A DNA stretch of 59,308 bases, filler included, from Sphacelaria rigidula (lineage: Eukaryota), in the NCBI GenBank assembly GCA_964200075.2. It is 9 parts of 9 records of this genome, joined end to end, with 100 filler letters (N's around TTAATTAATTAA, not from the genome) between each part and the next. Parts side by side here need not be neighbours in the genome. Positions count along the whole stretch, not along the records: positions 26,407 to 32,907 come from CAXNAA020019708.1; positions 33,008 to 39,508 come from CAXNAA020019709.1; 7 more parts are not named here. One strand, given 5' to 3'. The position numbers and the translations under genes are program-made. Shown one piece after another: positions 4,857 to 52,989 of the stretch; positions within the stretch are counted from its first letter, which is position 1, and each line of letters begins with the position of its first letter. Below the pieces are notes generated by a model, which was not told the origin of the DNA, made no database searches, and saw only the letters and a program-made list of their open reading frames with translations.

Positions 4857-5280
4857 TCGACTTTATCATGTTCCATACCACCTTCCTACTACCTCACTCC
4901 CTTTACTCACCATGTTAAGAGAGCATTTTCTCCCTGTAGTGGAACATAGATTCTTGTTCTTCGGAGTACTCCGAAGCGAGTCTCCTTCATTCCCCTATCT
5001 CCAGGTTGAGGGGCCCTGGGGCGTCCGCCATTGCTATGAGTATAATGTATGTCTCCCCGTGACGCCCTCGTATTTGTATTGGATTGTTCCGTGATGCGTT
5101 TGATTCCAGGCGGGGCTTGGTGAGCTGCAAATGTAAGGAGGAACTAGGCGAAGTGGGTAATGGAAAAATCTGTCCAGGGCTAACTCCGACGCTCTACGCG
5201 GTACGTACAATATGACGTTGTTGTTACTGTGGTTGTTGCTGGCGATGCCGGTATTGGTATGAAGTGCTGTTGGCAGAATT

Positions 5281-5308
5281 AGTAGTAGTAGTAGTAGTAG
5301 TAGTAGTA
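5281..5308. repeat. (AGT)n microsatellite
   Basis: About nine perfect AGT units. Confidence 0.95.
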
Positions 5309-5661
5309 CAAAAGTAACGCTAGGAGCAGCAGCCGTGCATGATATCATCTCATGTTGATATTCATAAGTACAGCAACTGCTACTTTACTGCTAGTGGTAC
5401 TGATTTTTCTGCGGTGCTGACTCTTTTGCTGCTTTACCGCTTGTTGTCGAATCTCGTCATCGTCGCTGCCAGGATGCCGAGGGCAAAATCATTTCAACGG
5501 ACGTGGATCCGTCTAGCGTTTGCGGGTGCCAAGTACCCACCCGGGATCCTTGCTACGGCGTCACCTGTGGACAGCATTCTTTTTGCAAGTGAGGAAGCTT
5601 TACCACACGGGAGCACGCAAAGGACAACCATTTCGCTTGCTTTGATTGCTTGATTGATTAA

Positions 5662-6124
5662 TAGGAGTGCTGGGTAGTGGTGCACTTGGCCAGTGTACTG
5701 GATCCTGCCAGTACCATGGTCCGCGAAGCCTGGCCGGAGGCACATTTTTGCGTGAATTGTCTTCACTTTTATTCTTTTGTCGCACTTTGAACCCCTTCCC
5801 TTCCTCGGGGCGGGTCCGTGGTCTCAAGGGATCATCCCATCTCTCCCCCGGTATTCATTACAACAACAAGGATTAGATTCTGCTTCACTTGCCGCGAAAT
5901 CCGATGGATTTCCGTTGAAAAATGAGGCGTTATTCATTGATTGATTGCTTGTCGCACTTTCACTGACTCCCCAGAGATCCAGCCAGATAGACGTACCCGA
6001 GACAAACGTCATATGTGCGTGGTTAGGAAGGTACTGGCAGTAGTGGCTCCTCTTTGTCCAGTACTACGACACTACCAGTCCACGTAGTGTACTGCCAGTG
6101 TGCACTGGTCCAGTACTCAGCCCT
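5662..6124. mobile_element. Degenerate MITE-like element with inverted ends rich in CAGTAC/GTACTG
   Basis: Left end AGGAGTGCTGGGTAGTGGTGCACTTGGCCAGTGTACTGG is loosely complementary to right end CCAGTGTGCACTGGTCCAGTACTCAGCCCT. Confidence 0.4.
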
Positions 6125-6270
6125 ATCGATTGATTGGTCGTCCCACTCCGACTGATCCGCAATGGATCTAGCTGTGGTCATTGGATAGAATGTAGACGTA
6201 CGTGCCCGATATAAATAAGATGGGAAGGCTCGCTGAAGGAAATTTCAGGAGAGAGAAGGAGGGGGAGGAG

Positions 6271-6375
6271 TAGGGGGGGAGGGGGGGGCATACTCATTTG
6301 TAGCTTGCCTTAGTCGTTTGACCCTTGACTACGCAGGCCCTTCGAGACGGAACGCGGTTCCTACTCCTATTAGAG
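6271..6375 (-). repeat. High-copy short dispersed repeat ending in poly(C) (poly-G on this strand); other copies at 1-45, 6470-6502, 6780-6880, 13070-13104, 14975-15055, 16553-16640, 25975-26109, 33010-33110, 39615-39725
   Basis: Shared core GCTCCGTC..G....AGGGATGCG(T/A)GGTCAATGGTC....GACTA.GGC..GCA...ATGAGTAC(G)CCCCCC, in two subfamilies and both orientations. Confidence 0.8.
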
Positions 6376-6502
6376 ACACGTCCAATATTCCGGTGCTCAT
6401 CGCGTTCCTTCCACACGTTACAAACCTTCCACGTGTCTCATTCCCTTCCTGTTACGCCGTCTGTGCTTGAAGGGGGTGGGGAGTGGGGGGGGGCGTACTC
6501 AT

Positions 6503-6602
6503 NNNNNNNNNNNNNNNNNNNNNNNNNNNNNNNNNNNNNNNNNNNNTTAATTAATTAANNNNNNNNNNNNNNNNNNNNNNNNNNNNNNNNNNNNNNNNNN
6601 NN
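6503..6602. other. Artificial contig linker (N-run + TTAATTAATTAA + N-run); identical linkers at 13105-13204, 19706-19805, 26307-26406, 32908-33007, 39509-39608, 46109-46208, 52709-52808
   Basis: Eight identical 100-bp spacers carrying a six-frame stop linker. The intervening pieces fall monotonically from 6502 to 6500 bp, i.e. size-sorted contigs. Confidence 0.97.
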
Positions 6603-7667
6603 CTACTAGACTACTGACCAGTCAGCGCTGACTGGTCAGTGGTCCAGTTGGTTGTCTCTTAAACCGCCACAGAGCACTGTTTTCAACTGCCTCGGGCGAC
6701 GTCTCTCGAAGTCAGAAGGGGCTATTTCCGGGCGATGAAAGGTTTGTCGAACCCAAGGCTGGTCCGGCGAACATCGGCGTGCTCCGTCCCGACTTTGTAG
6801 GGATAGTGTCAATGGTATCATTATGACCACGGCATGCAAGATCACGAGTACCCCTCCTCCCCCCGCCCGCCCCCCATGATCCCCTTGCAATGGAACCGCT
6901 TTACATACTCACAGGACACCCATACCGGCCATAAACTGTGGCAGCCATGGTCGCCCACGAGGTCCTCGTGTCGCCGTGAAAAACTTTATCGAGATAATCC
7001 CTTCAGTCGCCAGGGGTGAATGAGGGTCTGTGCTTCTCCGCAGAATTGAAAACGGGACTTTCATCGAATCGAAGGGTGCCTTGGGTCCTGCAGTTACTCT
7101 GACGTACGCCATCTGTTGTAGGTGAAGGTCAGGGTAAAGGAGTCCCCCCCCCCCTTCCCCCCGACCCTTCCCCGCCCCCCCGGCGGAAAAAACGCCCTTC
7201 GAGAATTAGTATCGGGAAGCCCAAGCACCGGAGAGAGATGAGCGGATTTTCTGTCTTCTAAGGGTCGGACAAATCAGAGTTCATACGAGTACGAGTTAAC
7301 TCCTCACGAATGGCGAGTGCACATGTGATTCATGTAATCAATGTAATGTGTTGATTGAAGAGTATACTAGCAATGAATCATGATAAAATTGTACGTTCGA
7401 GAGGTTTTGTAGTATCGCACGAATTACGAACTGGATTATGTACGCTCCACAAAGTGTCACAAACGAACGAATGGAAAGTACAATATACAATATGAATCAG
7501 GAATCACTGTTCGCGGGAAATGTCGATTTGATCCATCGCGAGTGAAAAACATGTAACAGGTGGCAGATTTTTTCATCCCGTACGAATAGCAGGTGGGAAA
7601 GATGTACGCATCATAACAATTATTCGCATGAATGAATGGTGGGACACATGTACCGGCGATTCAGGAC

Positions 7668-8037
7668 GTGTGTGTATGTTGTCATCCCATCCGTTATGGA
7701 CGCCGGTCTACACCTTTCGGTATATGTAGGCGCACCAGCCGGGGTCACACAGGAGGGAGGTCGTCGACACAGGAGTTTTTTCTTCCTTGTTTCCTTTTCG
7801 TACTCCACCTTCCTTTTGCGGTGCTTGCCTTCATTTTCTATCGCCGAGAGGGGTTCAGCAGTTCCTTTCTCTTATCGACCCTTACGTCGAATTTTGTGTA
7901 CCCCCGACATGGTCGCTCTCCACTATACTGTTGGGCATTGTGTGAGACAAAAATCCCAGATCGCTGCGAGATTTGAACCCACGACCCAACCGTCGGAAGG
8001 ATTCGAGGTTACCAATTGAACCACCGGGGCGATCGGC
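7668..8037 (-). mobile_element. tRNA-derived SINE (~370 bp)
   Basis: Minus-strand head GCCGATCGCCCCGGTGGTTCAATTGG (A box) ... GGGTTCAAATCTC (B box); CATACACACAC tail. Full second copy at 35455-35819, partial copy at 21551-21770. Confidence 0.85.
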
Positions 8038-11000
8038 TTGACGTGTATGAAGCACAGATGGGAGAAGAACGTACCTTCGACGGTGTACCGCATGAACGAC
8101 ACGCGGGAGCATTCACGTCTCTAATGTAGTGCCGCACGAATCGTATGATTACATTACATTCGTCCAAAAGTCGAATACATTCGACGTATATATAGAAAGG
8201 ATGAATCACCACTTTATTCGTCCAACCCTTACTTCCCTCCAAACGACAAACAGCGCCTTCTTTGTCCCCAGTACATCAAAAAGAGGTATTATCGTAGGCG
8301 AAACACGTGCTAAAAAGCGTTGTTGTGAGAAGTACACAGAACGATCTTGCAAGTTTGCTACTGTGCTTTCTATTCAAAATGTTTTCGGGCATCACCATCG
8401 TGACCCGCGCAGAGTGTCTCTTTTCTTCACCGCACTCAAATAAACCAAAAACCATCATATACTCCAAGTCAAGAGCTCAACTATTATGAAAACTCAACTC
8501 CGCAGTCGCCCCCTCGGATGAAAGCAGCAACAACAAACAAGCCCTCCATACACGAACACCAACAAGCCTTCCGTTCCATGACCTATACATTTACATATAT
8601 TTTCAGAAGCTGGTACATGTAGGACCTCGGGGGCGAAAAAAACACAAGCACACACACGCACACAATCCTGACCTGAACGTGAAATTCCGTGCACAATGCC
8701 CCATGTAGGGGGTGGACTTCCGCGCACGCACCAATAATGGTCGCAGGAAACACTTTCTTTGGTAATTTTCATCTCAGCACCCATAAGAAAAACGTTCTTG
8801 CCGAGAAGCGATATCTTGGCTTATCGAGCTGCCACGGGCAAGAGGTACACGAGCACAACAGTGACAAAAATTTCGGGCAGTTGGAACACGACCCTTCACA
8901 CACCGCTCCTCTGTTCGCTCGAATCCGGGAACATGCCCCCCCTCCCCGAGAAACCAAATCAATACCATTATTTCCGCATATTAGCCCCGTATATCGAACC
9001 CCTGGTCACAAGACGAGAAACGATATGCACCGTATTTTCCGCCCAATTAACAGCGAATCGCCCCGTACCATACCTTCACCGTACCATGGCTGTTACCGTA
9101 CCAGCACACAAAAAATATATATTAAGCCAACATAATAAATATTGTTTAATCCACGCGAACGGGGGAGACCTCCATCAGCGTTCGAACCCCAACTACGCTC
9201 ATTCTGTGGAAGAAATGATGGAAACAGGCGCTCCCTCAGGCAAAATCCGGTAGGATAGTATGGTTTGCGCGGAATCCCGACTCGACCTCGAATCCTGGAA
9301 AACACGAATGTCCGTTGCAGAGCTTTTGTACACGCCGCTTTTGCCTGGATGAATTTCGCCACACAGTCAATCTTGAAAGGCATAAGGCAACAGCAATAAC
9401 TCGCGATGCAAGGCGTGGAGTGGAGGCACACTACTAGTTGGAAGGGGAAAAAAACACCGACCGCGTGCCATCGCTCTCTTTTTAAACACCAGCAACAGAA
9501 GAACATACCCCAACCGGTGTGCAAGTCGGCAGCAGCAGCAGCAGCAGCAAAAAAACAACTCGCTGCTCGAGCCACATGATACCCAACACACACGCACGCA
9601 ACGCCTGTGTTCAAGCACAACTTGTGCGACACAACACAAACCACGTCTTTCCCAACCCACAGCAGGAAGGGAGTGTCAAACTGCACAAGAGTAAGAGCAA
9701 TCAAGGCGGCATAATCACCGCGACCGCGGGGCAAAAAAGATGAGAAGGGGGGGGAGGAAGAAAAAAAAGCCACTGTCTTCATGCAGGTCTTTTTGTGTCA
9801 CTACTACCCGTACAAGCACACTTCCAAGCACCCCCCAGGAGGAACGCCCTTTTTTTTTCAGCACGCAGCACACCCATCAATACACGAAACTCTTGGTACG
9901 GTACAGTACACACGAGCGAACGAATCGTCAAGTGGAAAGAGAAATGTATCCCTTTTGGTGACATCAATTTTTTGGAGGGGGGAAATGGAGAACATCTATC
10001 TTCCGTTGGCTACCACACAGCACAACAGAAACAAAATACAGTACAGTAACAACAATGAGCAGCAGCAACAGCAAGGGACAGAGACATAGAGACAGACGGC
10101 TACGGCTACGACCCCGCCCCCTGCACGTGCAGGTGTATATACATGTACATGTGCACCAGAACCACATGTGCACGACAACAATCGAGGCGCCGCCGGATTG
10201 ATGCATCGTTGCAGGTACAACGGTCGTCACACATACTTCTGGGCTTTACATGTGTATTAATTAATAATAAGCAGAAAGAAGAAAAGAAAAAATGGCGGCC
10301 CGGTCCGACCCCCATTTCAGGGATACAATAAAGTTCAGCTCAAAAGTATATCAACAGCATATGGGTCGAATCTACTGTACAAGCTGACGTACAAACAATT
10401 CTCTTCCCTCCGGCAACCCCATTACCTTGGTAAAACGTTGCAAACCCTGGATAATGGCAAAAATGTATTACACGGCCAAAAAGTGTATGACATACAGGAT
10501 CGACTGTTGCGTCTATTGCGATAGACAATGGATTCCATACTGGACTCGGTACACTTTTCGACAATGTAATATATTGTCATCATCCATCCAGGGTGTGAAA
10601 CGTTTAAAAAGTCTCTGCTCCAGAATGCCGTAGATCACGTCAGACACTTCAGCCAAGGAACATTGGCCAATCAAGGTACCAGCAAATTCCTTCTCATCAG
10701 CCAGTCAGAAAATTGCGCGCGGCTCTCATTTCTCTGTCTTGCTATTAGATACTCTCATCAAATACAAAAATCAACACAAGCGCACGTCCTACATGCGAAA
10801 ATACAAACAAAACAAAACAAAACAGAAATATAAACGGCAAGCAGCGGTGTGTACATGTACACACAAAACCAACCGATCCCCAGAGGAGAAAAAACAAAAA
10901 AAAAGGAGAAAAATGACGCCGACCGTAGAAAAGTACAGAGGATATGGAGGAGTAATGTTGCGAGGACAGATGGGTAGGGCAGGGTATACTCGATTTTGTT

Positions 11001-21550: not shown

Positions 21551-21770
21551 GGTGTGTGTTGTCATCCCATATATTTTAGACGCCAGTCTAGACCATCCAG
21601 TACATGTGGGTGCATCAGCCGGGGTCACATACGAGGGAGGTCAACACAGGAGCGTTGCATGTTGTAAATTGTTCAAGTACTCCACCTTTCTTTTGGCGTG
21701 CTTGCCTTACTTTTTATCGCGAGAAAAGGCAAGCGGTCCGCTTCCCTCGTCGACCGTGAAGTCGACCTCA
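21551..21770 (-). mobile_element. 5'-truncated copy of the tRNA-derived SINE
   Basis: Matches 7670-7880 (GTTGTCATCCCAT..GACGCC.GTCTA..CAGCCGGGGTCACA..GGAGGTC..CACAGGAG..TACTCCACCTT..GTGCTTGCCTT). The tRNA-like head is missing. Confidence 0.75.
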
Positions 21771-26406: not shown

Positions 26407-27100
26407 GGCAGCTTGTGGTGCAAACCTACCAACTCGCCCACAAATCGATCATCGGCAAAAAACATCAGCTTGTGAGGCCAAGCTGCCAAATCGCCCACAA
26501 ATCGATCATCGGCACAAAAAGGCAGCTTGTGGTGCAAACCTACCAACTCGCCCACGAATCGATCATCGGCGAAAAATGGCAGCTCGTGGTGTAAACCTGC
26601 CAAATCGCCCACATATCGATCATCGGCAAAAAACATCAGCTTGTGGTGTAAACCTGCCAAATCGCCCACATATCGATCATCGGCACAAGACGTCAGCTTG
26701 TGGTGCACAGCTGCCATATTTTGCCCACATATCGATCATCGGCAAAAAATGTCAGCTCGTGGGGCAAACTGCCAAATCGCCCACAAATCGATCATCGGCG
26801 AAAAATGGCAGCTCGTGCTGCAAACCTACCAAATCGCCCACGTATCGATCATCGGCGAAAAATGGCAGCTCGTGGGGTAAACCTACCAACTCGCCCACAA
26901 ATCGATCATCGGCAAAAAATGCCAGCTCGTGGTGCAAACTGCCAAATCGCCCACAAATCGACCATCGGCAAAAAAAGGCAGCTTGTGGTGCAAACTGCCA
27001 ACTCGCCCACACATCGATCATCGGCAAAAAATGTCAACTCGTGGTGCAAACTGCCAAATCGCCCACATATCGATCATCGGCAAAAAACATCAGCTTGTGG
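26407..27100. repeat. Tandem array of ~57-bp units (at least 12 copies, truncated by contig start)
   Basis: Unit starts at 26407, 26464, 26521, 26578, 26635, 26692, 26751, 26807, 26864, 26921, 26977, 27033, 27089. Consensus GGCAGCT(T/C)GTGGTG(C/T)AAA(C)CT(A/G)CCAA(A/C)TCGCCCACA(A/T)ATCGATCATCGGCAAAAAAN. Confidence 0.97.
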
Positions 27101-27164
27101 ACGCCCACGGCAGCCACCTGTCATCAATACAGGCAGTCAACAACTCAATAAATGTTTTATGTAG

Positions 27165-27195
27165 GAACCAATCAATCGATCGTTAACCAATCGCG
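27165..27195 (+). promoter_or_regulatory. Paired CCAAT boxes upstream of the 27294 ORF
   Basis: AACCAATCAATCGATCGTTAACCAATCG, followed by a C-rich leader ~100 bp before the ATG. Confidence 0.3.
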
Positions 27196-27293
27196 CAACA
27201 GCCCTCCCCGTGCTCACGCTTCCCCCACCACACCCACTCCGCCCACCCTTTCCCACTCTGATCACTCCCCACTCCGCACACTCCGCACCAACA

Positions 27294-27704
27294 ATGAGCT
27301 CCAACGATGACTACACGACGCCAACAAAAACGAGGAAGCCATCTCCCCCGGCTGCTCCCGCCAGGAAGAGGCTGAAGAAGACGTTGGCACCAACTGAAGA
27401 TGCTCTACTTCTGGTTTACATCAACGACGATGGACAGTTGGTCAACTATTCAAGCAACCACACCGTGTTGTCCGGGATTAAGGGACACCACGATAATATA
27501 GAGTTTTTGTCGGATGAGCTTTTCGAGGGCGTGCTCGGCGTCGTTGGTGGCAACGGATATTCTTCTGTCAGCCGCGACATGTATTTCGAAGACGAGATCG
27601 AGGAGCTTAAGAAAAAGGCTTTGATCAAGCTGTTTGGGCAAGAGGTTCACGGCGGCGGGGAGGCGCAGGCCGGCGAAGTGTTCCGGGGAACGATGGTGAT
27701 CTAG
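27294..27704 (+). CDS. Intronless hypothetical protein (136 aa), putative viral; basic NLS-like N-terminus
   Basis: ACAATG start, uninterrupted ORF MSSNDDYTTPTKTRKPSPPAAPARKRLKK...GEVFRGTMVI*. Natural amino-acid composition; converges on the next gene 73 bp away. Confidence 0.7.
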   Translation: MSSNDDYTTPTKTRKPSPPAAPARKRLKKTLAPTEDALLLVYINDDGQLVNYSSNHTVLSGIKGHHDNIEFLSDELFEGVLGVVGGNGYSSVSRDMYFEDEIEELKKKALIKLFGQEVHGGGEAQAGEVFRGTMVI

Positions 27705-27777
27705 GCGTTTTTTAAAAACGCACCCCGGGGTTTTGTAGAGATATGCATTTTTTTGGCGACATGATGGCTCTTAATCA

Positions 27778-28362
27778 TTATAATCCGTCCCAGCAACCAC
27801 ATGCACGCAGCGGCACGCAACAGACACACAACATTCCGATGGCAACGGCCAACATGTACCCGAATGTGGCAAGCGCTCGTGCATCTGCGTGAAGCCTCAC
27901 ACAAGATGCTAAATAATCCTCGTGTAGAACAATCATCGACGCACAGTCGCTATACCCGCTACTATCCATCACGTAACGCATCTCCCAACCGAGCGACGGC
28001 GAGTTCCTCGGATGAGAATCACAGACGGAGTCTGTTTCATAAAAGTCCGTGCTTTCGATGATAGCAATTGCGACGTTCTCCGGCACGTAGTCCCAACACT
28101 TTTTTCCTATCGGATACCGAACGGCCAAAGTGACACCTAGTGTAAAAATCTGAGACATGTACGACACAGTCCTCAGATCTGTGTCGATGTGCACTTGGCA
28201 CTCGCCCGAAGTCGTGTTCCAAATCTGAGCGCTGTCTCTTGAAGAACAAACCGCCAGGTCATCCCATTCGTGGGCGAAGTCCGTGCAGATTGTTCCACAT
28301 GGAGTCCCGGAGGCGGAAGCCACGCAGAAGAGAAGAACTGTGCCGAAGAAAAACGATTTCAT
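27778..28362 (-). CDS. Intronless Cys-rich type I membrane (glyco)protein, 194 aa, putative viral
   Basis: Signal peptide MKSFFFGTVLLFCVASASG; Cys-rich ectodomain with an NTT sequon; C-terminal hydrophobic segment ALATFGYMLAVAIGMLCVCCV; ends TAA TGA. Confidence 0.75.
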   Translation of the reverse strand: MKSFFFGTVLLFCVASASGTPCGTICTDFAHEWDDLAVCSSRDSAQIWNTTSGECQVHIDTDLRTVSYMSQIFTLGVTLAVRYPIGKKCWDYVPENVAIAIIESTDFYETDSVCDSHPRNSPSLGWEMRYVMDSSGYSDCASMIVLHEDYLASCVRLHADARALATFGYMLAVAIGMLCVCCVPLRACGCWDGL

Positions 28363-28451
28363 GGTTGAAGCAATGTTTGATGCTCTGTTGTACCAAAGCT
28401 TGTGTCAACGTTTCCATGTAATTTCTGACATTTTCAGCGTTTATTTTGTAG

Positions 28452-31400
28452 ATGTTTATGTACATGATGCATTCAAAGGTTGTTCTTGTTGTCGCCTTAG
28501 TCGTCGTGGGGGCGATCCTTTTCGCAACTACCAGAAAAGGTGACGCCACGAACGAGGCCCCCCAGAAAACATGGGTAAGTCGAGACGAGATAGCTCTGAC
28601 AGCAAATGCCATCATCGGCGAGTTGGACGAGGAGGCCATGGAGGCCCTGCCGTCAGATCTGAAGCCCAACACCGACGTCCTCTCTCTTACGGATGCGGAG
28701 AAGACATAACTTTTCGCCATCCTCAACAGCGTGAACGACAGCGGCGTCTTGGGCGCATTGGGTTCAGCCAGCCCCCTTGGTTCATCGGCGATGACGGAGC
28801 TCGTGAAAACCAAAAGTCACATCACGGACAAGATTCGTCGATACGAAGCTCGCATGACATCCCTGAAAAAGCAAATCAACGAGACGAAAGATTTCAAAAG
28901 GAAAGTACAGCTCGCCGCCGAAGTTAAAAAAACAGAGGGCGTTATCAGCCGCAACAAGGCCGCCCTGCAAAGTACCAACAAAAAAATTGAACCACTGAAA
29001 GCGAGTCAGAAAAAAACACAGAAGACTGCTCCTACGAAAGCTCTTGTGCAAGTCGTTATGGCTGGAGGATCTGACGCGAAAGTCAAGTCCCTGATGGATC
29101 AGGCGAAAGAACTGGAAGCCAAGTATGACTCCTTGCTTACGAAACGTGCAACCCTGCACAAACAAGCTGACGACTTGGAGAAAAAAGCCATGACGGAGCT
29201 CGTGAAAACAAGGAATCATATCACAGACAAGATTCGTCGATACGAAAATCACATGAAAAAAGCAAGGTCTGTCGCGGAAATAAAAAAAGCAGCGGGCGTT
29301 GTTAGCCGCAACAAAGCTGCTCTTAAGATTACCATAAAAAGATTGACGAAGTGGAAGCGGAAAAGATGAGTTCTGAAAAAACATTTCAGACTACGAAAAG
29401 ACTGATCGATAGCGTTGTCAAGTCGAGCAAAATGATTCAGGGCAAGATTGAAGCTGAAAAGAGGAGGATTGCTGATGAAAAAAAGCAAGCTTCGGCAAAG
29501 GCGCGAAAGGCGGAGCAGGCTAAACAAAAGGAGGTGGTCGCCAAAAAGCTATTGAAAATGAGCGAAGTAATAGCTGCTGCGAAAAAAGCTGAAGCAAGAA
29601 AAGCAAAATTGGTACTCGAACGACAAGCCCCGGAGGCAAAGCGGCGCGCCAAGAAGGCACAAGAGCTGGCACTCGCGCAAAAAGCACACAACGAAAAGGT
29701 GGCCGAAGCCGACCGTGCTCGCAGGCAATTTGAGGAAGCTCGGGCAAAAAAGGAGGCCGATGCGCTCGCGAAGAGAAATGCCGAACTTCGACGTAGGAAA
29801 GATCAGCTCAATCATGAGGCTGCGCTTGCTAAAGCGGCGATCGACGCCAAGCGCAACGAGGAAAAAAGACGCGCGGAAGCTGCAAAGGCTAGGATGAAAG
29901 CGAAAGAGGCAAAGCTAAAAGAAAAGGCGGCACAGGCGTTAGAGAAGGCAGAGAAAATCAAGTCTGAAGGGCTGCGCAAAAGAGTGCAGGATGCTATCCG
30001 GAAAAAAGCTGCTGATCAACAAAAGTAACGACAGGAGGCTGCCAAGAAGATGGCAGACATCGCTCTGCAGATGCAGAAAAGTCTCCATGAAAGGAGCGAA
30101 GGCTGATGGAGAAACAGCAGAAAGATGCCGCCGATTTTCGTCGCAAGCAGCAGGAGATGGCGAGGCTCGAGGAGATGGCGAAGGCGAGAGCCAAAGACCA
30201 AGCCGCAAAAGCTGCACAAGCGGCCGCTGATCAGAAGCAACGCGAGCTTGACCAGAAGAAGCATGACCAGCAAGCCCGTGCCTTGAGACAGAAACAGTTG
30301 GATCTGGAGAGGGAGAAAGAGGCGAAAAGGGTCAAGGCGACCGCCGCCCTTGATAAAGCGAAGAGAGACGCGGTTGCTAAGAAGGCCGACGCGGAAAAGA
30401 AGCGTCGCGAGCATATGGAAGCCCGAGCTCGCTTGCTCAGGCACAAGACCGAAGAAGCTGAGAAGGCGAAGAAAAAGCAAGTCTCCGAACTGGAAAAGGG
30501 TATCGAGAAAATTGCTGGAATGAGCACTGATTCTGTCGACCTTTCCGGTCTGGATAGGGCCGTTCTTTTGGAGCTGGAGGTTTTCATCAAAGCTTCCGGC
30601 GGACATCGTATTCTACCAGCCATTGTCAAGATGATCGAACTCAAGTCCAAGAAAGAAGAGGAAAAAGAGGCGCAGAACGTCGACGCCGCCGCCGACGACG
30701 AAGAGAAGCCGATGACGGACGAGAAAATCCACGATGACTTTTTGAACAACGTCAGGAGGATCACGGGGATTGAAAAATATGGCCTTGGGAGCATGATTGC
30801 ACTGGACATGGATGTGTTGGAAGAATTGTTGGCATACACCAAAACCCTGACGACCGGGCGGTTGGCTGGATTTGCTCAAGATGTGAAAGGATTTATTTTC
30901 TGGAAGAAATTAATCACCGTCGGCAAACAATGCGGTGTCATGATCATTCCCGGTTTCAAGCCGGAAAGAGTGGACTGGTCTGGCGTGGACGTCATGGGTA
31001 TGGACAAGATTATCGAGTTCTTGAAATCTGAACCACGCTTCGGCGAACGTTGGCTCAACGTAATCCAGGTAGTCCGCCAGAGCAAGGTGGTGGAGCTTGC
31101 CGCACAAAGGGAAGCGGCCGAGGAAGCACTTGCCACAAAGCAGGCGGCGGAGTAGGAAGCAATCGAGAAAGCTCGCGTTGCCCAGGCGGAGAAGGACCTC
31201 GAGGAGGCTGCCGTGAAACTTGAGCAGGATGGCAAAAAGCTGGACACCGAGATAGCCAAGGTGGACCAGGCCGTCTCCGCCGATAAAGAACGCGTGGTTA
31301 CCGAGCATCAGAAAGATGTGAAAACCATCGAGCGCGAGCACGAGAAAGAGAAACAAGTTATGATCGAAGAAATGAGGAAGGGACTGAAGGAGGTTGTGGA

Positions 31401-32304
31401 AGAGGTCGCCGTTGAGTCCCGTGAACGAATCGAAGAGGCCGATGCTGCGCGTGAGAGCAAGCTCGTGGAAATGAAACAGGAACAGGCCGAGGTGGAAAAT
31501 GAGTAGAGTGCCGAAGCGATCGAAGCCGCTGTCGTCATTCAAGTCGAGATGTCGACCACTCAAGACCAGGCCGTTGCCGAAGCACTTCGGCAAAAGCTTC
31601 GCGAAGATCAAGAGGATCGAGCCAGGGCTCTGGAGGATACGAGAAATGCCCATGTTCTTGAACAAGAGGCCGTGGTCGAAGAGACCAGAGTCCTTTAAGA
31701 AGAGATTGAGAAAAGCATCGCGTCTAAGATCAAGGAAGAGAGTACGGTTGCCCAAGAAAAGTTGGAGTCTGTCGTTGAAACCATAGAAGAAGAAAAGCAA
31801 GACTTGATTGAAAAGAAAGAAAAGGTTCAGGAGATCGAGTTGGAGAAGGTAGACCTCGAGGGTAATATCCAGACCGACCTTCTGGAACAAGATAAACGCA
31901 ATGTCGAAGAGGAGAAGAAAATCGTCGAAGAAACTACCGCCGACGATGTAGTGGACGAGGCCGTTCATCCTCGCTCGTCCAAGGAAGATGGAGTCACGGT
32001 GTCGAGGAAATAGAACCCGAATGGGTCAGTCTTCATTAAAATAAGTGTACCTAGTGATATGTCTCCCGGTGAATCCGATACTGTTTCTGTTTTCTTGTCG
32101 AAGGAGGCGGGAGTACTGTTGGAACAGTACCACCAGATTTACAAGAATATTGGGGGAGACGGTTCCCTTGAGGCCGTGTCCGCCGACGAAAAGAAAGTGT
32201 TGGCTTCGGCGGGCGCCGAGTTTGAAAGGATTAGGGAGCAGTACGTTCAGCAGAGAAAGCAGAAGGTGTTGGAACGTCGCGAACAGTTGGTGGCTCGATT
32301 TTAA
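28452..32304 (+). pseudogene. Disrupted ~1,280-codon intronless gene: N-terminal membrane anchor plus long K/E/A-rich coiled coil, putative viral
   Basis: Seven track ORFs join into one reading path. In-frame stops: TAA 28707, TAA 30026, TAG 31153, TAG 31504, TAA 31696, TAG 32011. One-base deletions in A-runs near 29336 and 30090. N-terminus SKVVLVVALVVVGAILFATTRK; final TAA 32302-32304. Confidence 0.85.
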
Positions 32305-32340
32305 GACAAAATATAATGTTGATGTAATACGAGACGAATT

Positions 32341-32865
32341 ATGCCTACTCCATGTGCTGCACCAACGTGCCACCGGACTCGACCAAGACAAAGGCCCGGA
32401 CGGAGGACCCTACCAGGAAAATGCGTAAGACCGAACCCCTGGAATGCCTTCCGGACGCGCGTCAGCGGTCAGGGACGTTCGAAGGACGAAATGTCGCTCA
32501 TGTACAACACGTGGAAGCAAGACTGGTTGATCGCACACCCCGGTTTGAGTCGCTCTGACGCGAGGGCCGCAATGAATGCAACATTGTGCGAACAAATCGA
32601 CGAAGCCAATCGTCGTATGGCAGAGCCGCGAAGGCGCGCACCTCTTTTGACCGCAAGTAGAGACGATCGACGCAGGCGAGCCCGCGAAAGGGCCCGCGGG
32701 AACAGGCCGGGAAGGTTTTTTGCTAAAAAAGACATTCCTGACGGCTGGTCGCTGAATGCTCACGTGTCAGCAATGAGTTTCCCGTTCATGTTTGAGCATC
32801 GACCTAGGTCGGGAGGCCTGTTGTCAAACACGAGCAAACAGCAAATTGTGAGGATTGAGGTTTAA
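32341..32865 (+). CDS. Intronless Arg-rich protein with HMG-box-like helix motif, putative viral DNA-binding protein (3' end possibly disrupted)
   Basis: Starts 36 bp after the previous gene. Contains RPNPWNAFRTRVSGQGRSKDEMSLMYNTWKQDW and an Arg-rich tract; coding-like codons continue past TAA to the contig end. Confidence 0.6.
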   Translation: MPTPCAAPTCHRTRPRQRPGRRTLPGKCVRPNPWNAFRTRVSGQGRSKDEMSLMYNTWKQDWLIAHPGLSRSDARAAMNATLCEQIDEANRRMAEPRRRAPLLTASRDDRRRRARERARGNRPGRFFAKKDIPDGWSLNAHVSAMSFPFMFEHRPRSGGLLSNTSKQQIVRIEV

Positions 32866-33710
32866 CTCTGAATTGAGGCTCAAGTGGGCAACCCAACTTG
32901 CGAACTGNNNNNNNNNNNNNNNNNNNNNNNNNNNNNNNNNNNNNNNNNNNNTTAATTAATTAANNNNNNNNNNNNNNNNNNNNNNNNNNNNNNNNNNNNN
33001 NNNNNNNAACCCGGCGGGGTCCGTCTCACCCTTGTAGGGATGGGAGGTCAATGGGCTTACGACTATGGCAAGCATGATCATGAGTACCCCCCCCCCCCCC
33101 CCCTCCCCTCCTTCCTGCAGAAACATAGAGCAAAGCGAGACGTGCAGCAATTGACAACGATTACACCCTATAAGAGGGTGGTTTCAGCTTCAGTGTACCC
33201 TCTCCCCCCCATTGGGAGTCAGCGATAGAGCGAGACACTCGTGGCTACTCTCAATGTAGCACCCCCTTGCTCGTGACGTAGGTCGGATCAGCAGACGGTC
33301 TTGGCGTCGCCACGCCTTCTCGACTCCTCCGTCCCCTCCTCCGCTCTCATGTTCCATCTGCCTACATTCAGTGGTCGTGACGCAAGATTCGGAATATTTG
33401 ACCTCAACACCGTACAATACACCCACTCACCACTCTGTTCGTTCTTCCTCGAGTAATATACCCCCTAGGGCCCGAATATTCTTCTGGAGGCGACCCTCTC
33501 AGTATCTAGAGGATCGGACACGTTTCCTTAGCCTCGTGTGAAGAAAACCGCCGCAACATGGTGCGCTTGGGGCCACGCGTTTCGTACTGGCGGAGGAAGA
33601 CCCCCGCGAAGCAGAATTGGCGCCGGCGGAGGATCGTCTCGATACGTTCGCATCTGACAGCTGCGTCACTTCAACAACTGTACTGTGCTGTGTTGGAGCT
33701 GAGAGGCTTA

Positions 33711-34180
33711 GGACACTTCTTATGTATCAGAATATAAACGGTTGAAGAGTGCAGTTTCGGCCCTTCTCCGTCGAGTTTCGCCCGAAAAGAGGGCTAGGCG
33801 GATGTTGACACCTTGGAATGACTTGCTCCACACGCTGAGACCGTTCCAGAGCACCTTTGCGTTTTCCGTAGGTCACAGTTTCGTCTTTGGCCAAACTTGC
33901 ATTTTCAATGACAAACGGTCAAAAGTTATCGAAAAACAGGGGGGAAACTGACATTTTTTTTTATTACTTGACCGTTTGTTATTGAAAGTGCAAGTTTGGC
34001 CAAAAACGAAACTGAACTGCGGGAAACGCAAAGGTGCTCTGATACCGTCTCAGCGAGTAGAGCAACTTATTCCAAGGTGTCAACATCCACCTAGCCCTCT
34101 TTTCGGGGGGAAACCGACGGAGGAGGGTCAAAAATGAACTTTTCAACAAGTTTCATTTTTTTTATACATAAGAAGTAGCC
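33711..34180. mobile_element. Harbinger/PIF-like foldback MITE (470 bp, ~220-bp inverted arms)
   Basis: TTA|GGACACTTCTTATGTAT ... ATACATAAGAAGTAGCC|TTA. The arms are complementary over nearly the whole length. Confidence 0.88.
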
Positions 34181-34183
34181 TTA

Positions 34184-34654
34184 GGCCACTTCTTATGTAT
34201 GCGAAATAAATCTGGTTGAAAAGTGCAGTTTCGACCCTTCTCCGTTGATTTTCGCCCGAAAAGAGGGCTGGGCGGATGTTGACACCTTGGAATGACTTGC
34301 TCTACTCGCCGAGACCGTTCCAGAGCACCTTTGCATCTTCCGCAGGCCACAGTTTCGTTTTTGGCCAAACTTGCATTTTCAATAAAAAAACGGTCAAGTT
34401 ATAAAAAAAGTGGGTGTTCTCCCCCCATTTTTTTAATAGCTTGACCGTTTGTTATTGAAAATGCAAGTTTGGCCAAAAACGAAACTGTGACCTGCGGAAA
34501 ACGTAGAGGTGCTCTGGAACGGTCTCAACGAGTAGAGCAAGTCATTCCTAGGTGTCAACTTCCGCCTAGCCCCCTCTTCGGGCGAAAACCGATGGAGAAG
34601 GGTAAAAATTGCACTTCTCAACAAGATGTTTTCCCTTGTACATGAGGAGTGGCC
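34184..34654. mobile_element. Second Harbinger/PIF-like foldback MITE, directly abutting the first
   Basis: TTA|GGCCACTTCTTATGTA ... TACATGAGGAGTGGCC|TTA. It shares the TTA at 34181-34183 with the previous copy. Confidence 0.88.
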
Positions 34655-35454: not shown

Positions 35455-35819
35455 GTGTGTATGTTATCATCCCCTTTATTCTAGACGCCGGTCTAAACCT
35501 TTCGGTATTTGTGGGCGCACCAACCGGGGTCACACACGAGGAAGATCAACGTCGGGTTTTTTTCTTTTCTGTTTGTTTTGGTTCTCCACCCTTCCTCTGC
35601 GGTGCTTGCCTTTATTTCTTTATGGTGAGAGGGGTTCCGCGGTCCCTTTCCCTCGTCGACCATAGAGTCGAATTTTGTGTACGCACGATATTACAGTATC
35701 GCTCTCCACTGTTGGGCACTGTGTGAAAAAAAATCTCAGATCGCTCCGAGATTTGAACCCATAGCCCAACCGTGAGAAGGTGTTTCGAGGTTCCGAACTT
35801 AGCCACCGGGGCGACCGGC
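35455..35819 (-). mobile_element. tRNA-derived SINE, full-length copy
   Basis: Head GCCGGTCGCCCCGGTGGCTAAGTTCGG ... GGGTTCAAATCTC; collinear with 7668-8037. Confidence 0.85.
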
Positions 35820-44274: not shown

Positions 44275-44724
44275 GGCAACTTCCTATGTTGTATCAAAAA
44301 TTAAAACTTGTCGAAAAGTGCATTTTTATCCCTTCTCCGTCGTTTCTCCCCCGAAAAGAGGGCTAAGCGGCTGTTGACACCTTGGGGATGACTTGCTCTA
44401 CTCGCCGAGACGGTTCCAGAGCACACATGCGTTTCCCGTAGGTCACGGTTTCGTTTTTGGCCAAACTTGCATTTTCAATAACAAACGGTCCTTTTACCGA
44501 AAAAATATCAGTTTTCCCCCTGTTTTTAGATAACTTGACCGTTTGTTATTGAAAATCCAAGTTCGGCCAAACGCATGTGTGCTCTGGAACCGTCTCGGCG
44601 AGTAGAGCGAGTCATTCCAAGGTGCCAATAGCCGCCTAGCCCTCTTTTCGAGGAAAAAACGACGGAGAAGGGTCAAGAATGCACTTTTCAACACCTTTTA
44701 TTTCTTCATACATAAGAAGTAGCC
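44275..44724. mobile_element. Harbinger/PIF-like foldback MITE (same family as 33711-34654)
   Basis: TAA|GGCAACTTCCTATGT ... ACATAAGAAGTAGCC|TAA; same arm sequence; TAA target duplication. Confidence 0.88.
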
Positions 44725-46780: not shown

Positions 46781-47997
46781 GTAATGGTGAAGAACGGTAC
46801 TCACGAAAAACTAAGAAGAAAGGACAAGTACGAATTCTGAAAACTTCCGATGCTGACTACTATAGTTCTGGATACTTGCATGACTGACAGCAGCAAATCT
46901 ATGCCTTCAAGGATAGGGGGAGAAGGGGAGTAGGAGGGTCGGGCAGGGGGTTGGGGGCGGGGGGAGGGGTGGTATCTATTGTAGTCCACGGTAATCTATC
47001 TAGGTCTGAGGCGTATGTCTTCGGCTCCACTTTCTTCTCGAAACAGTCGACTGCACCAGCTCGCTTCGCCAAACATACAATGAGTGCCGCGCGCCAACTG
47101 TAGTTTACTGTCTGTACGGAGAGTGCATATGTTAGCAAACTAGTTTTGGCGAAGTGGCCGCAACGGACGTACATCACTCTTTTATAAATAACCGTGTTTG
47201 TCCTCTTTCCCCCCCAGCCCCCTCTTCTTTTCATCAATTCTATCTTCGCCTGCGGTCGGTTTGCGTCCAAGCTTCCTACATGATCTAGTCAAAATATGTC
47301 GAGAGGACCAACGTTTTCTCGTACCGGGGGGCACATACTTCTTCATGTGATTCCGTACCTTCGGCGGTTGTCCGACCGCGAGCAGAAACAGCGATCGTGC
47401 ATGGAGCACACGAGCTGCAGACAGAGCAACACGCGCACACGTCATACCGAAAGGAAAAACAAAACAACGCACCCGGAAACGGCAGGAAAGAAAAAAAACA
47501 GTTATTTAAACAGAGAGAAGATGAAAGGATGAGGAAATACTCGGGAGGGGCAAAGCATAGCATACAGGGAAGCAAAGAAGCACCACCGAGACCACTGTCG
47601 AATGCATCGAACGATTCATGCTGCCTTCGTTCACGTCCCGCATTCACCCCTCTAGCACGTCCCGTTCCTCCTTGCATGGTTCACATTTTGCCACTATATG
47701 AGTTTTACTCTCTACTCCTTCGCCACAGGGGCAACTCTGTGCATCCACTTCCTCCTTCTCTCGACCACTGGGTGCACATTTCATTCACATGTATCGTTAT
47801 ATGATCGAGGCGTCAAACATCATCTCACATATCTGGATGAGGACTTACAACAACGTACACTTTTCCTCAAGGAAGGGGGGAGAGGGAGGGGGAAGGGGGG
47901 GGTGGAGTATGACAATATGCATGTGTATTTATGATATGACCTCCTCCAAATTCACCCTTCCCCTCTCGCGAACTCTTCTATTATATGCATCTCTCAC

Positions 47998-49460
47998 CTT
48001 GCACATAACCCGAGGCCCACCAATCAGAAACAGTACCACGATGACCATCGCCACAAGCGTAAGCACCGTAAAAACTATGAGGAACAGCAAGTCCGTGCTG
48101 AGTCCCAGCGTCTCATTGCATTTGCTGCACTCGTCCGACGACAACTTTCTGTAGCCGTCGATGCACACAGAGCAGTACACGCCCATGTAGCCTTCGCTGC
48201 AGTACCTCGAGCCCACCGTCTGGGTTATATCCGAGTCACCGGTGATACCATCTGCCAAGGATCGACTATGAGTGGCTCGTGATCCAGGCTTGACCTTCGC
48301 GAACCGCTTCTGGATCCGGAGAGACCGCTTCCGCGTTTGGGTGGATTCCGCCGTCGTCACTGCCGCCGCGGTGGACATATCCGCGTCAGACAGGTTACCG
48401 TCGGTGTAGTAGTCGGGGATGAGATCTTCGCCGGTGCCGCCGGCGCAAGCGTTTTCGTTAAGACATGCGCGTATGTACGTTCGATGGACGTCTCCTCGCC
48501 AGTACCCTTGTGGTTGTGTTGTGTTGGGGGGGGTTGTGAATGCGACGGTGGGGACGGAGGGAAGGAGACCGAGGGGTGGTGGTAAGACTGTTGCAACAGG
48601 AGACTGGAGAGTTTTTCGACACGGTTCAATATTGGTAACAGAGGGCTGGATGTGTGTTTTGTGCTTCGCATTCACACTCACTCACGCTCAACCCCTCCCC
48701 AAGAAAAGAGTCAAGGGGTTTCCGCGTGTAAACTCATCGGACAGCAGCGCTACAAAACGATGAGGGTTGATGTTCGCGAGCTGGTTCAGCGTATGTTGCC
48801 CCGAACACAATTGATTCATGTAGAGAGTTCAGGTACCGAGCTACAAGAAGCGCAGTTGTGTGTTGAGCCGGCTTGAAGTCTGTCGTCCAGAAGCGCTCTC
48901 CTTCCTTGTGCCAACAGAGTCGAACGGGTCGTGTGTGCTACCCTAACGCGTGTCCGCGACCGTCCCCCTCCGTACGGGAATTCAAACGCTGGAGGAAAGC
49001 AACCCGCGACTTGGCGCTCGAAATTCTCCAAAATTAAACGGGAACCACACTCGTCTAAGCAACAGTAGCAGTGGTTGCAGCAGTGACAAAATGTGCCCTA
49101 ATTATGCAAACCGAACGAGCTGTTTCCTGCGGTGACCAGGAGGGTCCGTGATTCATGTGGCGAAAGCCGCGCCTGTGGTCTCCAAGTCGCGGCATGGAGT
49201 GCTGATCGTGAGGTCGACTGTTCATGACGGTGAAAAACAGTACGTATACTGGGTACCGCCCGTCAACGGTCCTCACGGACACAGGCACCGTGAAAGCACC
49301 GCTCTCCCTCTCCCCGTGTCGACTGACCTGGCTTGAGGGGTAGAGTCTCGGTGGTATACCCAGGTGCCGAGCAATCCAAGACATCCGTCCCGTCGGCCAA
49401 GCTGTCCATTTCCCCCGCACAGGATGTACATTCCTCTGCCTCGATGTCCCAAAAGAATTC
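47998..49460 (-). CDS. Partial spliced host gene: Cys-rich extracellular region followed by a transmembrane helix; exons 49460-49328 and 48506-47998
   Basis: A phase-1 splice joins EFFWDIEAEECTSCAGEM..DCSAPGYTTETLPLKP-G-YWRG..IRACLNENACAGG..YCSEGYMGVYCSVCIDGY..CSKC to LLFLIVFTVLTLVAMVIVVLFLIGG. Donors GTCAGT and GTGAGA. The Cys pattern is typical of large multi-pass protist membrane proteins. Confidence 0.8.
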
Positions 49461-52400: not shown

Positions 52401-52989
52401 CATATTGGGCCTCGTGAGGGGCATTTGGTAACTGAAACAATTAATTCAGTGATTGACCGCTTCTCACTCTCAATCTCAAGAAACCAGTTTGTCCTGTGTC
52501 TTCGGAGCAAGTAGCCGGAGTAGCAGCAAACGTGGCACAGAAAATAGGATCCCTGCTGGCGAACAACCGCTCCAGAGTGCGCCCCGTTGTGCGACCCATC
52601 ATTTGAGGCACTTTTCATCATTTTTTCGCAATACTGTATAACAAACAATTGTGCGAATTGAGGTTCAACTCCGAGATGAGGTTCAAGCCTAAAACAGTGC
52701 TTTCCCCANNNNNNNNNNNNNNNNNNNNNNNNNNNNNNNNNNNNNNNNNNNNTTAATTAATTAANNNNNNNNNNNNNNNNNNNNNNNNNNNNNNNNNNNN
52801 NNNNNNNNGTCGTTGACTGTACGTTATGAAGTATAAACACCACCTGAGCTGTTACATCTTGAAGTTCAAGTTATGTCCTTGCTAAAACAATCTAGCACAG
52901 TGATGAAAGCTAGATTGCACTGTGTTTTTATTATTTCACATGAAGGATCGAATCTCTCAGCCGCTGTTACGAACATCGTTTTGCATCGT

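Follow-up and report, generated by a model that had tools for sequence, protein, structure and literature searches.

What a compact run of intronless genes is doing in the assembly of Sphacelaria rigidula (GCA_964200075.2), and whether it belongs to a virus or to the alga, is the question raised by contig CAXNAA020019708.1. This contig occupies positions 26,407 to 32,907 of the window, the 59,308-nucleotide stretch analyzed here, composed of nine pieces ordered by descending length (6502 to 6500 bases) and spaced by N's. The arrangement makes it plausible that the sequence is a whole contig, as an earlier note held, and a protein database entry for the window's own protein places it on a 6501-base contig. 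The same note had read it as a fragment of a large DNA virus, either endogenous or co-sequenced, and had taken phaeoviruses as the model. Homology and gene order to EsV-1 support that view, and we conclude that the 6.5 kb contig very probably stems from an EsV-1-like Phaeovirus (Nucleocytoviricota), part of whose genome was integrated into the nuclear genome of an alga and is now decaying. Its features are listed in Table 1.

Table 1. Features of the contig, with positions counted along the window.
Feature	Position	Strand	Remarks
57-bp tandem array	26409..27100	.	TRF, 12.2 copies, 85% matches
g1, open 136-aa ORF with basic KRLKK motif	27294..27704	+	EsV-1 homologue, BLASTP
Conserved intergenic block between convergent g1 and g2	27706..27744	.	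Two palindromes, one A/T and one CCCCGGGG
g2, open 194-aa ORF	27778..28362	-	EsV-1 homologue, BLASTP; convergent with g1
g3, pseudogene (on sequence grounds) of an EsV-1-171 homologue	28452..32304	+	Three frame segments; terminal stop at 32302
g4, 5' fragment of about 160 codons	32341..32835	+	Relatives carry a Ulp1/Peptidase_C48 domain; ORF 32341-32865
Start of very high-copy dispersed repeat, where the assembly breaks	32837..32907	.	Depth; many different loose ends before 32836-32838

Three of the genes have significant Phaeovirus homology. By BLASTP, g1 matched the EsV-1 ORF at positions 8600–9163 of the EsV-1 locus (L001) with 62% amino acid identity (E 1e-57), g2 matched the ORF at 9303–9881 on the minus strand with 65% identity (E 5e-96), and g3 matched EsV-1-171 (E 8e-72 over the globular region). 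In the EsV-1 genome, the ORFs matched by g1 and g2 lie immediately upstream of EsV-1-171, and the repeat block, both ORFs, and the 171 gene follow in the same order and orientation as on the contig. Three collinear blastn blocks (27286–27744, 27866–28917, and 29405–32289 against L001 8742–9215, 9382–10457, and 10787–13681) shared 69, 72, and 76% identity. Identity to EsV-1 thus spans 69–76% at the DNA level and 62–68% at the protein level (50–68% for the g3 segments). The lineage, which the earlier note thought might be undescribed, is an EsV-1-like Phaeovirus relative. Downstream of the 171 gene the two differ, with EsV-1-172 in EsV-1 and a Ulp1-family fragment here. Single-protein scans of IMG/VR with g1–g4 returned nothing even though EsV-1 is in that collection, which reflects a limit of the method rather than absence.

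Domain searches agreed with the earlier note, which had recognized no hallmark gene. Pfam gave no significant family on any ORF of the contig (ten ORF pieces, with g1 and g2 among those lacking one), and the Nucleocytoviricota core genes (MCP, PolB, A32, D5, VLTF3, and integrase) were absent from these ORFs, 6.5 kb being too short to expect one. On 73 ORFs of the other contigs, Pfam yielded two families, both under cut-offs and on one ORF, and Rfam and tRNA scans of the whole window gave 0 hits.

The four genes are spaced as the earlier note described, with gaps of 73, 89, and 36 bp, although the third is not open. The g2 product is hydrophobic at its N-terminus and in a C-terminal segment, and Cys-rich in between; the NLS, signal peptide, and TM segments assigned on the contig are readings of the sequence by eye only. 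The 57-bp array at the contig start was recovered by TRF, with a read depth of 41–166 compared with 27–39 in the unique part. Local rises in depth hint at further copies. Genes of EsV-1 form dense islands with repeat blocks between them. Its arrays (65 bp x22.8 and 122 bp x15.1, L001 5249–8542) hold the same relative place upstream of the g1 homologue as the array here; the unit sequences are unrelated and gave no blastn match. The array at the front of the contig and the dense arrangement of intronless genes on both strands would be viral inheritance.

Decay is most visible in g3. The earlier note described a membrane-anchored coiled coil of ~1,280 aa, but the gene is not open. The sequence runs through three frame segments (28452–29339, 29336–30094, and 30091–32304), changes frame near 29330–29339 and 30091–30104, and contains six internal TAA or TAG stops (28707, 30026, 31153, 31504, 31696, and 32011). 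Its segments align with residues 1–276, 238–492, and 492–1230 of EsV-1-171 at 50, 55, and 68% identity, spanning residues 1–1230 of 1233 and thereby the N-terminal hydrophobic anchor, the coiled coils, the helical globular domain, and the conserved C-terminus. The gene is intact in EsV-1, intact relatives of 1209–1254 aa are known, and a metagenome contig (L002) encodes an intact 1232-aa homologue without a relative of g1, g2, or g4; in g3, by contrast, six stops and two frame changes interrupt the reading frame. The gene also differs from EsV-1-171 in an internal duplication of 70 nt (D17), both copies of which match one EsV-1 stretch (L001 10333–10399). The breaks were identical, with no differing letters, in three independently assembled runs (X1, X2, and X4; three samples, two studies, depth 15–39). 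Eight disruptions, six of them nonsense changes and two of them frame changes, would have inactivated the EsV-1-171 homologue, a large membrane-anchored coiled-coil gene, presumably after insertion into the host.

The family itself is tiny, comprising 7 of 1.84 billion representatives at E<=0.001, one of which is the window's own ORF. All matches with a source name came from EsV-1 or an Ectocarpus assembly. When confined to proteins of similar length, a word-based search recovered nothing beyond the window's own ORF, whereas a search allowing longer proteins found the family. The predicted fold of the globular domain (pLDDT 81) had no structural neighbour besides itself, so the model suggested no function, and a literature search found no publication naming EsV-1-171 or EsV-1 ORF 171.

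The two genes upstream raise a different possibility. Neither g1 nor g2 is broken, nor is g4; at the break rate of g3, this would occur with P about 0.15 for g1 and g2 and 0.06 when g4 is included, a weak hint of uneven decay. Between the convergent pair, 37 of the 39 bases of the intergenic block are identical to EsV-1 (L001 9177–9215), compared with 69–76% identity in the surrounding coding DNA. An 18-nt core of this block also occurs in two other IMG/VR contigs with unrelated flanks, probably by chance. Dispersed fragments have reportedly been proposed by Delaroque and Boland to recombine with incoming phaeoviruses. We give a small chance to the reading that the open pair and its near-unchanged palindromic block are kept in the host, either as a domesticated virus-derived module or as a reservoir available for recombination with incoming phaeoviruses. 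On the preferred reading of a decaying insertion, the openness of g1 and g2 lies within chance.

A slighter chance remains that the fragment comes from a virus that was free or episomal rather than integrated, or from virus-infected cells, and was sequenced along with the alga. The homology is entirely to a virus, the contig was present both in organism-labelled runs and in one labelled 'algae metagenome', and its link to host DNA consists of about 70 nt of repeat, with no unique host flank seen on the contig. The right-hand end nevertheless speaks against this reading. At 32837, contigs assembled from three runs leave the unique sequence and extend 30–45 nt into the repeat, and the summed word depth in the last bin reaches about 1.5e5 (X1), 2.0e5 (X2), and 9.4e4 (X4), compared with 27, 39, and 15 in the unique part. 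Contig 8, a host-type contig, ends in the same repeat family (window 52647–52708; 41 nt, 83% identity, E 4.5e-5) and has another repeat (D16) in common with contig 4. The earlier note had found none of the other contigs' repeats here; this holds for the interior, which has no repeat in common with the other eight contigs, but not for the last ~70 nt (32837–32907). By an indirect comparison, other repeat-carrying contigs have depths of 17–52 in X1 and X2, similar to the 27 and 39 of this contig. A non-integrated virus also accords poorly with eight disruptions in a gene that relatives keep intact. Two features, the passage into a high-copy repeat of host type and the broken g3, lead us to favour an endogenous over a co-sequenced origin: a piece of phaeovirus genome would have been inserted in the nuclear genome of an alga and then have decayed, with g4 cut off at the start of the host dispersed repeat.

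It is more improbable still that the host has retained g1 and g2, perhaps with pieces of g3, as genes of viral derivation and puts them to use. The open pair beside a broken g3 and the conserved intergenic block would fit such use, as would the three differences in a further run (X5), two of which are synonymous third-position changes and one Ile to Val. All three, however, fall within broken g3, the openness of the pair is within chance, and the genes have no introns, no paralogue, and no host-type feature. On the preferred reading, the decaying piece most likely has no function today and would be silent.

That g3 is a working gene, with in-frame TAA and TAG as sense codons of a variant nuclear or viral code or with programmed frame changes, is barely credible. 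In its favour, the internal stops are all TAA or TAG and never TGA, and an ATGA or TGATG stop-start overlap is present at each of the two frame changes. Against it, the residues opposite the six stops in six intact relatives are of at least five kinds (two positions being invariant in 6/6), so that no single meaning fits, g1, g2, and g4 terminate in TAG or TAA, the terminal TAA of g3 falls where the relatives P0003 and P0005 end, and relatives read both frame-change points in one frame. Judged from these alignments, g3 is a pseudogene and not the product of a variant code. Separate small ORFs coupled by the stop-start overlaps were considered and rejected on the end-to-end alignment to intact relatives.

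The origin of g4 is less clear-cut. The earlier note called its product Arg-rich and HMG-like; Pfam gave 0 families at E<=1, and the relatives found belong to an Ulp1-type family (67% identity to P0007, which lies on a 13 kb contig, and 63% to P0008). Homology ends near 32817, and the ORF continues into the repeat to a stop at 32863–32865. P0008 matches PF02902 (Peptidase_C48) at E 1.1e-24 (residues 115–289); g4 aligns with its N-terminal, non-catalytic part and ends ahead of the PF02902 region, and so is without the catalytic His-Asp-Cys domain. Its nearest Atlas clusters come from eukaryotes, most often Oomycota, which serves as a lead only. Among gene labels of brown-alga viral elements, a figure legend includes 'Ulp1 protease' (PMC11890097). 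A viral source for g4 is putative. No relative of it turned up in the 23.7 kb EsV-1 locus, the IMG/VR collection, or JGI metagenomes, so the right-hand limit of the viral element may be 32304 or 32835.

Elements of this kind are familiar from brown algae. One survey reports viral regions in 67/69 brown algal genomes and counts 792 regions in 72 genomes, mostly 2–50 kb, monoexonic, and silent (bioRxiv 10.1101/2024.02.19.579948), and EsV-1-like fragments have been described amid repeats and pseudogenes (PMC2373305). As described in these sources and PMC11890097, brown-algal endogenous viral elements are short (2–50 kb class), monoexonic, accompanied by pseudogenes, and adjacent to repeats, as here; unlike them, this contig has no core marker gene. 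According to its stated selection, the survey took only contigs over 10 kb (bioRxiv 10.1101/2024.02.19.579948), so a 6.5 kb contig would escape it because those of 10 kb or less were not kept.

With this contig the known Phaeovirus relics grow by one; its lineage shares only 59–68% protein identity with EsV-1 and with each of the other close relatives identified. Brown algae commonly harbour relics of this kind, as was already known, and this one is biologically expected. Its practical value lies in annotation, where the ORFs are best marked as relics of a virus, one of them a pseudogene, rather than as genes of the host. EsV-1-171 and the two ORFs upstream of it are conserved as a block in distinct phaeoviruses, and if g1 and g2 were maintained in the host, the 39-nt block would be an undescribed Phaeovirus transcript-end or regulatory signal.

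The contig at 26407–32907 (contig 5) is supported as a decayed relic of an EsV-1-like Phaeovirus. Pfam gave nothing significant for any of its ORF pieces, and a length-restricted word search with one piece returned the window's own ORF as sole match. In a search of longer proteins, the globular part of the third gene (g3) matched EsV-1-171 (1233 aa; E 8e-72, 62% identity) of EsV-1, the Ectocarpus siliculosus virus 1, and three more proteins of 869–1254 aa. When 1.84 billion representatives were searched exhaustively with HMMER, only seven proteins reached E ≤ 0.001, the window's own ORF among them, and all g3 matches with a named source came from EsV-1 or an Ectocarpus assembly. A 23.7-kb EsV-1 locus is fully collinear with contig 5, running from tandem arrays through homologues of the first two genes (g1, g2) to EsV-1-171. 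The earlier note's 57-bp array, ORF coordinates, and gaps of 73, 89, and 36 bp were reproduced, and its large-DNA-virus fragment is supported and sharpened; homology and gene order with EsV-1 overturn its suggestion that the lineage may be undescribed.

Features of contig 5, the EsV-1 locus, and repeats of other contigs
Feature	Sequence	Position	Detail
57-bp tandem array	contig 5	26409–27100	12.2 copies, 85% matches
g1	contig 5	27294–27704 (+)	
g2	contig 5	27778–28362 (-)	
g3	contig 5	28452–32304 (+)	three frames
g3 internal stops	contig 5	28707, 30026, 31153, 31504, 31696, 32011	all TAA or TAG
g3 frame changes	contig 5	near 29330–29339; 30091–30104	first in A-run
g3 duplication	contig 5	28788–28857; 29187–29256	70 nt, 86% identity
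g4	contig 5	32341–32835 (+)	
EsV-1 tandem arrays	EsV-1 locus	5249–8542, upstream of g1 homologue	65 bp ×22.8; 122 bp ×15.1
g1 homologue	EsV-1 locus	8600–9163	62% identity
g2 homologue	EsV-1 locus	9303–9881	convergent, 65% identity
DNA-level block	contig 5	27286–27744	69% to EsV-1
DNA-level block	contig 5	27866–28917	72% to EsV-1
DNA-level block	contig 5	29405–32289	76% to EsV-1
g1–g2 intergenic block	contig 5; EsV-1 locus	27706–27744; 9177–9215	37/39 identical
Terminal repeat	contig 5; contig 8	32837–32907; 52647–52708	dispersed, summed depth at least 1e5
Repeats	other contigs	7672–7762; 21552–21642; 35457–35547	
Repeats	other contigs	33731–34636; 44301–44706	

The 57-bp unit has no DNA-level match within the EsV-1 locus. 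Both EsV-1 homologues of g1 and g2 are intact ORFs in the viral DNA; one is absent from the protein collection and the other filed only under an Ectocarpus assembly, so the virus record may lack an annotation for them. EsV-1-170 is called transposase-like in a passage of PMC11890097. A metagenome contig of 16105 bases carries an intact 1232-aa EsV-1-171 homologue with ORFs of 645 aa upstream and 398 aa downstream, as well as a tandem array of 236-bp units; these neighbours differ from those in EsV-1, so the g1–g2–171 block is not universal among relatives. The block between convergent g1 and g2 (an A/T-rich palindrome, then CCCCGGGG) is far closer to EsV-1 than the coding DNA (69–76%) and might serve phaeoviruses as a transcript-end or regulatory signal. 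The 18-nt core of this block also turns up in two other IMG/VR contigs, there with unrelated flanks. EsV-1-171 itself begins with a hydrophobic N-terminal anchor, has long coiled coils and a globular domain modelled as all-helical (pLDDT 81), and is completed by ~100 conserved C-terminal residues. A structure search with the predicted globular domain found no neighbour except itself, and a literature search found no publication naming the protein.

The third gene, described earlier as coding for ~1280 aa, is not open but a pseudogene. Its three frame segments align to EsV-1-171 residues 1–276, 238–492, and 492–1230 at 50%, 55%, and 68% identity, interrupted by six internal stops. The breaks are not assembly errors, because three sequencing runs (X1, X2, X4) from three samples and two studies agree, covering them at depths of 27, 39, and 15 with zero differing letters. 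Coupled small ORFs, suggested by ATGA/TGATG overlaps at both frame changes, and a variant code, suggested by the TAA/TAG-only stops, both fail: the stop sites correspond to at least five kinds of residue in six intact relatives, two of the six positions are invariant in all six, and relatives read through both frame-change points. With the breaks real and both alternative readings rejected, g3 is a pseudogene, and intact relatives are present in other assemblies. A fourth, thinly covered run (X5) showed three single-base differences, all inside g3, two keeping the residue and one changing Ile to Val. The second copy of the g3 duplication matches EsV-1 locus 10333–10399, the stretch aligned with the first copy's region; as both copies correspond to one EsV-1 stretch, the duplication seems peculiar to the g3 of contig 5. 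One X4 contig (depth 15) joins 28517 to 30942, omitting 2424 bases within g3 that other X4 contigs cover at depth 14–20; the join reflects either a variant of the relic with a deletion or an artefact of assembly. Local depth bumps in several runs (27492–27708, 30530–30746, 31615–31831) and X5 loose ends at 27523, 30677, 32011, and 32044 hint that the samples hold additional, diverged copies of these viral genes.

Pfam found no HMG box in the fourth gene (g4), contrary to the earlier description. Its relatives are two proteins of 67% and 63% identity, the latter bearing a Ulp1/Peptidase_C48 domain (E 1.1e-24), and the alignment is confined to the part preceding that domain. Homology is lost near 32817, ~20 nt ahead of the terminal repeat. 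Searches of the EsV-1 locus, the metagenome contig, IMG/VR, and JGI metagenomes gave no g4 relative, and the nearest Atlas clusters, a lead only, are eukaryotic Ulp1 families. A figure legend of PMC11890097 uses 'Ulp1 protease' as one of its labels for genes in brown-alga viral elements. The 36-bp spacing to g3 favours g4 being part of the viral piece rather than of host or transposon origin.

The window's pieces measure 6502, 6502, 6501, 6501, 6501, 6501, 6500, 6500, and 6500 bases, separated by N44-TTAATTAATTAA-N44; this descending order fits whole contigs of a fragmented, size-listed assembly. The window's own ORF is recorded in the protein database on a contig of 6501 bases, and contig 5 is plausibly a whole contig, as previously assumed. 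The genome around contig 5 is rich in repeats and poor in genes. Contigs 1–4 and 6–9 share several dispersed and inverted repeat families among themselves (examples in the table), and only one of their 73 ORFs had Pfam matches (47932–48681; JAMP and DUF7630, both below their own cut-offs). GC content (51.1% vs 48.5–51.5%) and CpG ratio (1.11 vs 0.92–1.06) do not clearly separate contig 5 from the others.

Contigs of X1, X2, and X4 pass from unique sequence 30–45 nt into the terminal repeat, and the last bin there has a summed word depth of ~1.5e5, 2.0e5, and 9.4e4, respectively. In every run, many different sequences precede this repeat from 32837 on. The same family ends contig 8 (83% over 41 nt, at equal distance from the contig end), which shares another repeat with contig 4, itself sharing repeats with contigs 1 and 2. 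In the runs, the main loose end behind 32884 matches the continuation of contig 8 exactly. Repeat copies split after 32884 into contig 5-type and contig 8-type forms; the repeat comprises two similar ~18-nt half-units and has no Rfam match. Other repeat-carrying contigs have depths of 17–52 in X1 and X2, like contig 5. Together, the repeat junction, depths, and GC/CpG values favour an inserted copy over free virus, short of proof because contig 5 carries no unique host flank.

The compactness, lack of introns, genes on two strands, and leading tandem array are explained by a Phaeovirus-derived fragment of known kind. As described in PMC2373305, EsV-1 genes form dense islands between repeat blocks, and Ectocarpus carries EsV-1-like fragments with pseudogenes and repeats. 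At the break rate of g3, g1 and g2 would both remain open with P 0.15 (0.06 with g4), so their openness is within chance. The viral piece is most likely inert. A survey reports 792 viral regions, mostly 2–50 kb, in 72 genomes, and of 69 genomes from brown algae 67 had such regions (bioRxiv 10.1101/2024.02.19.579948); the relic on contig 5 is one more case of this well-known kind.
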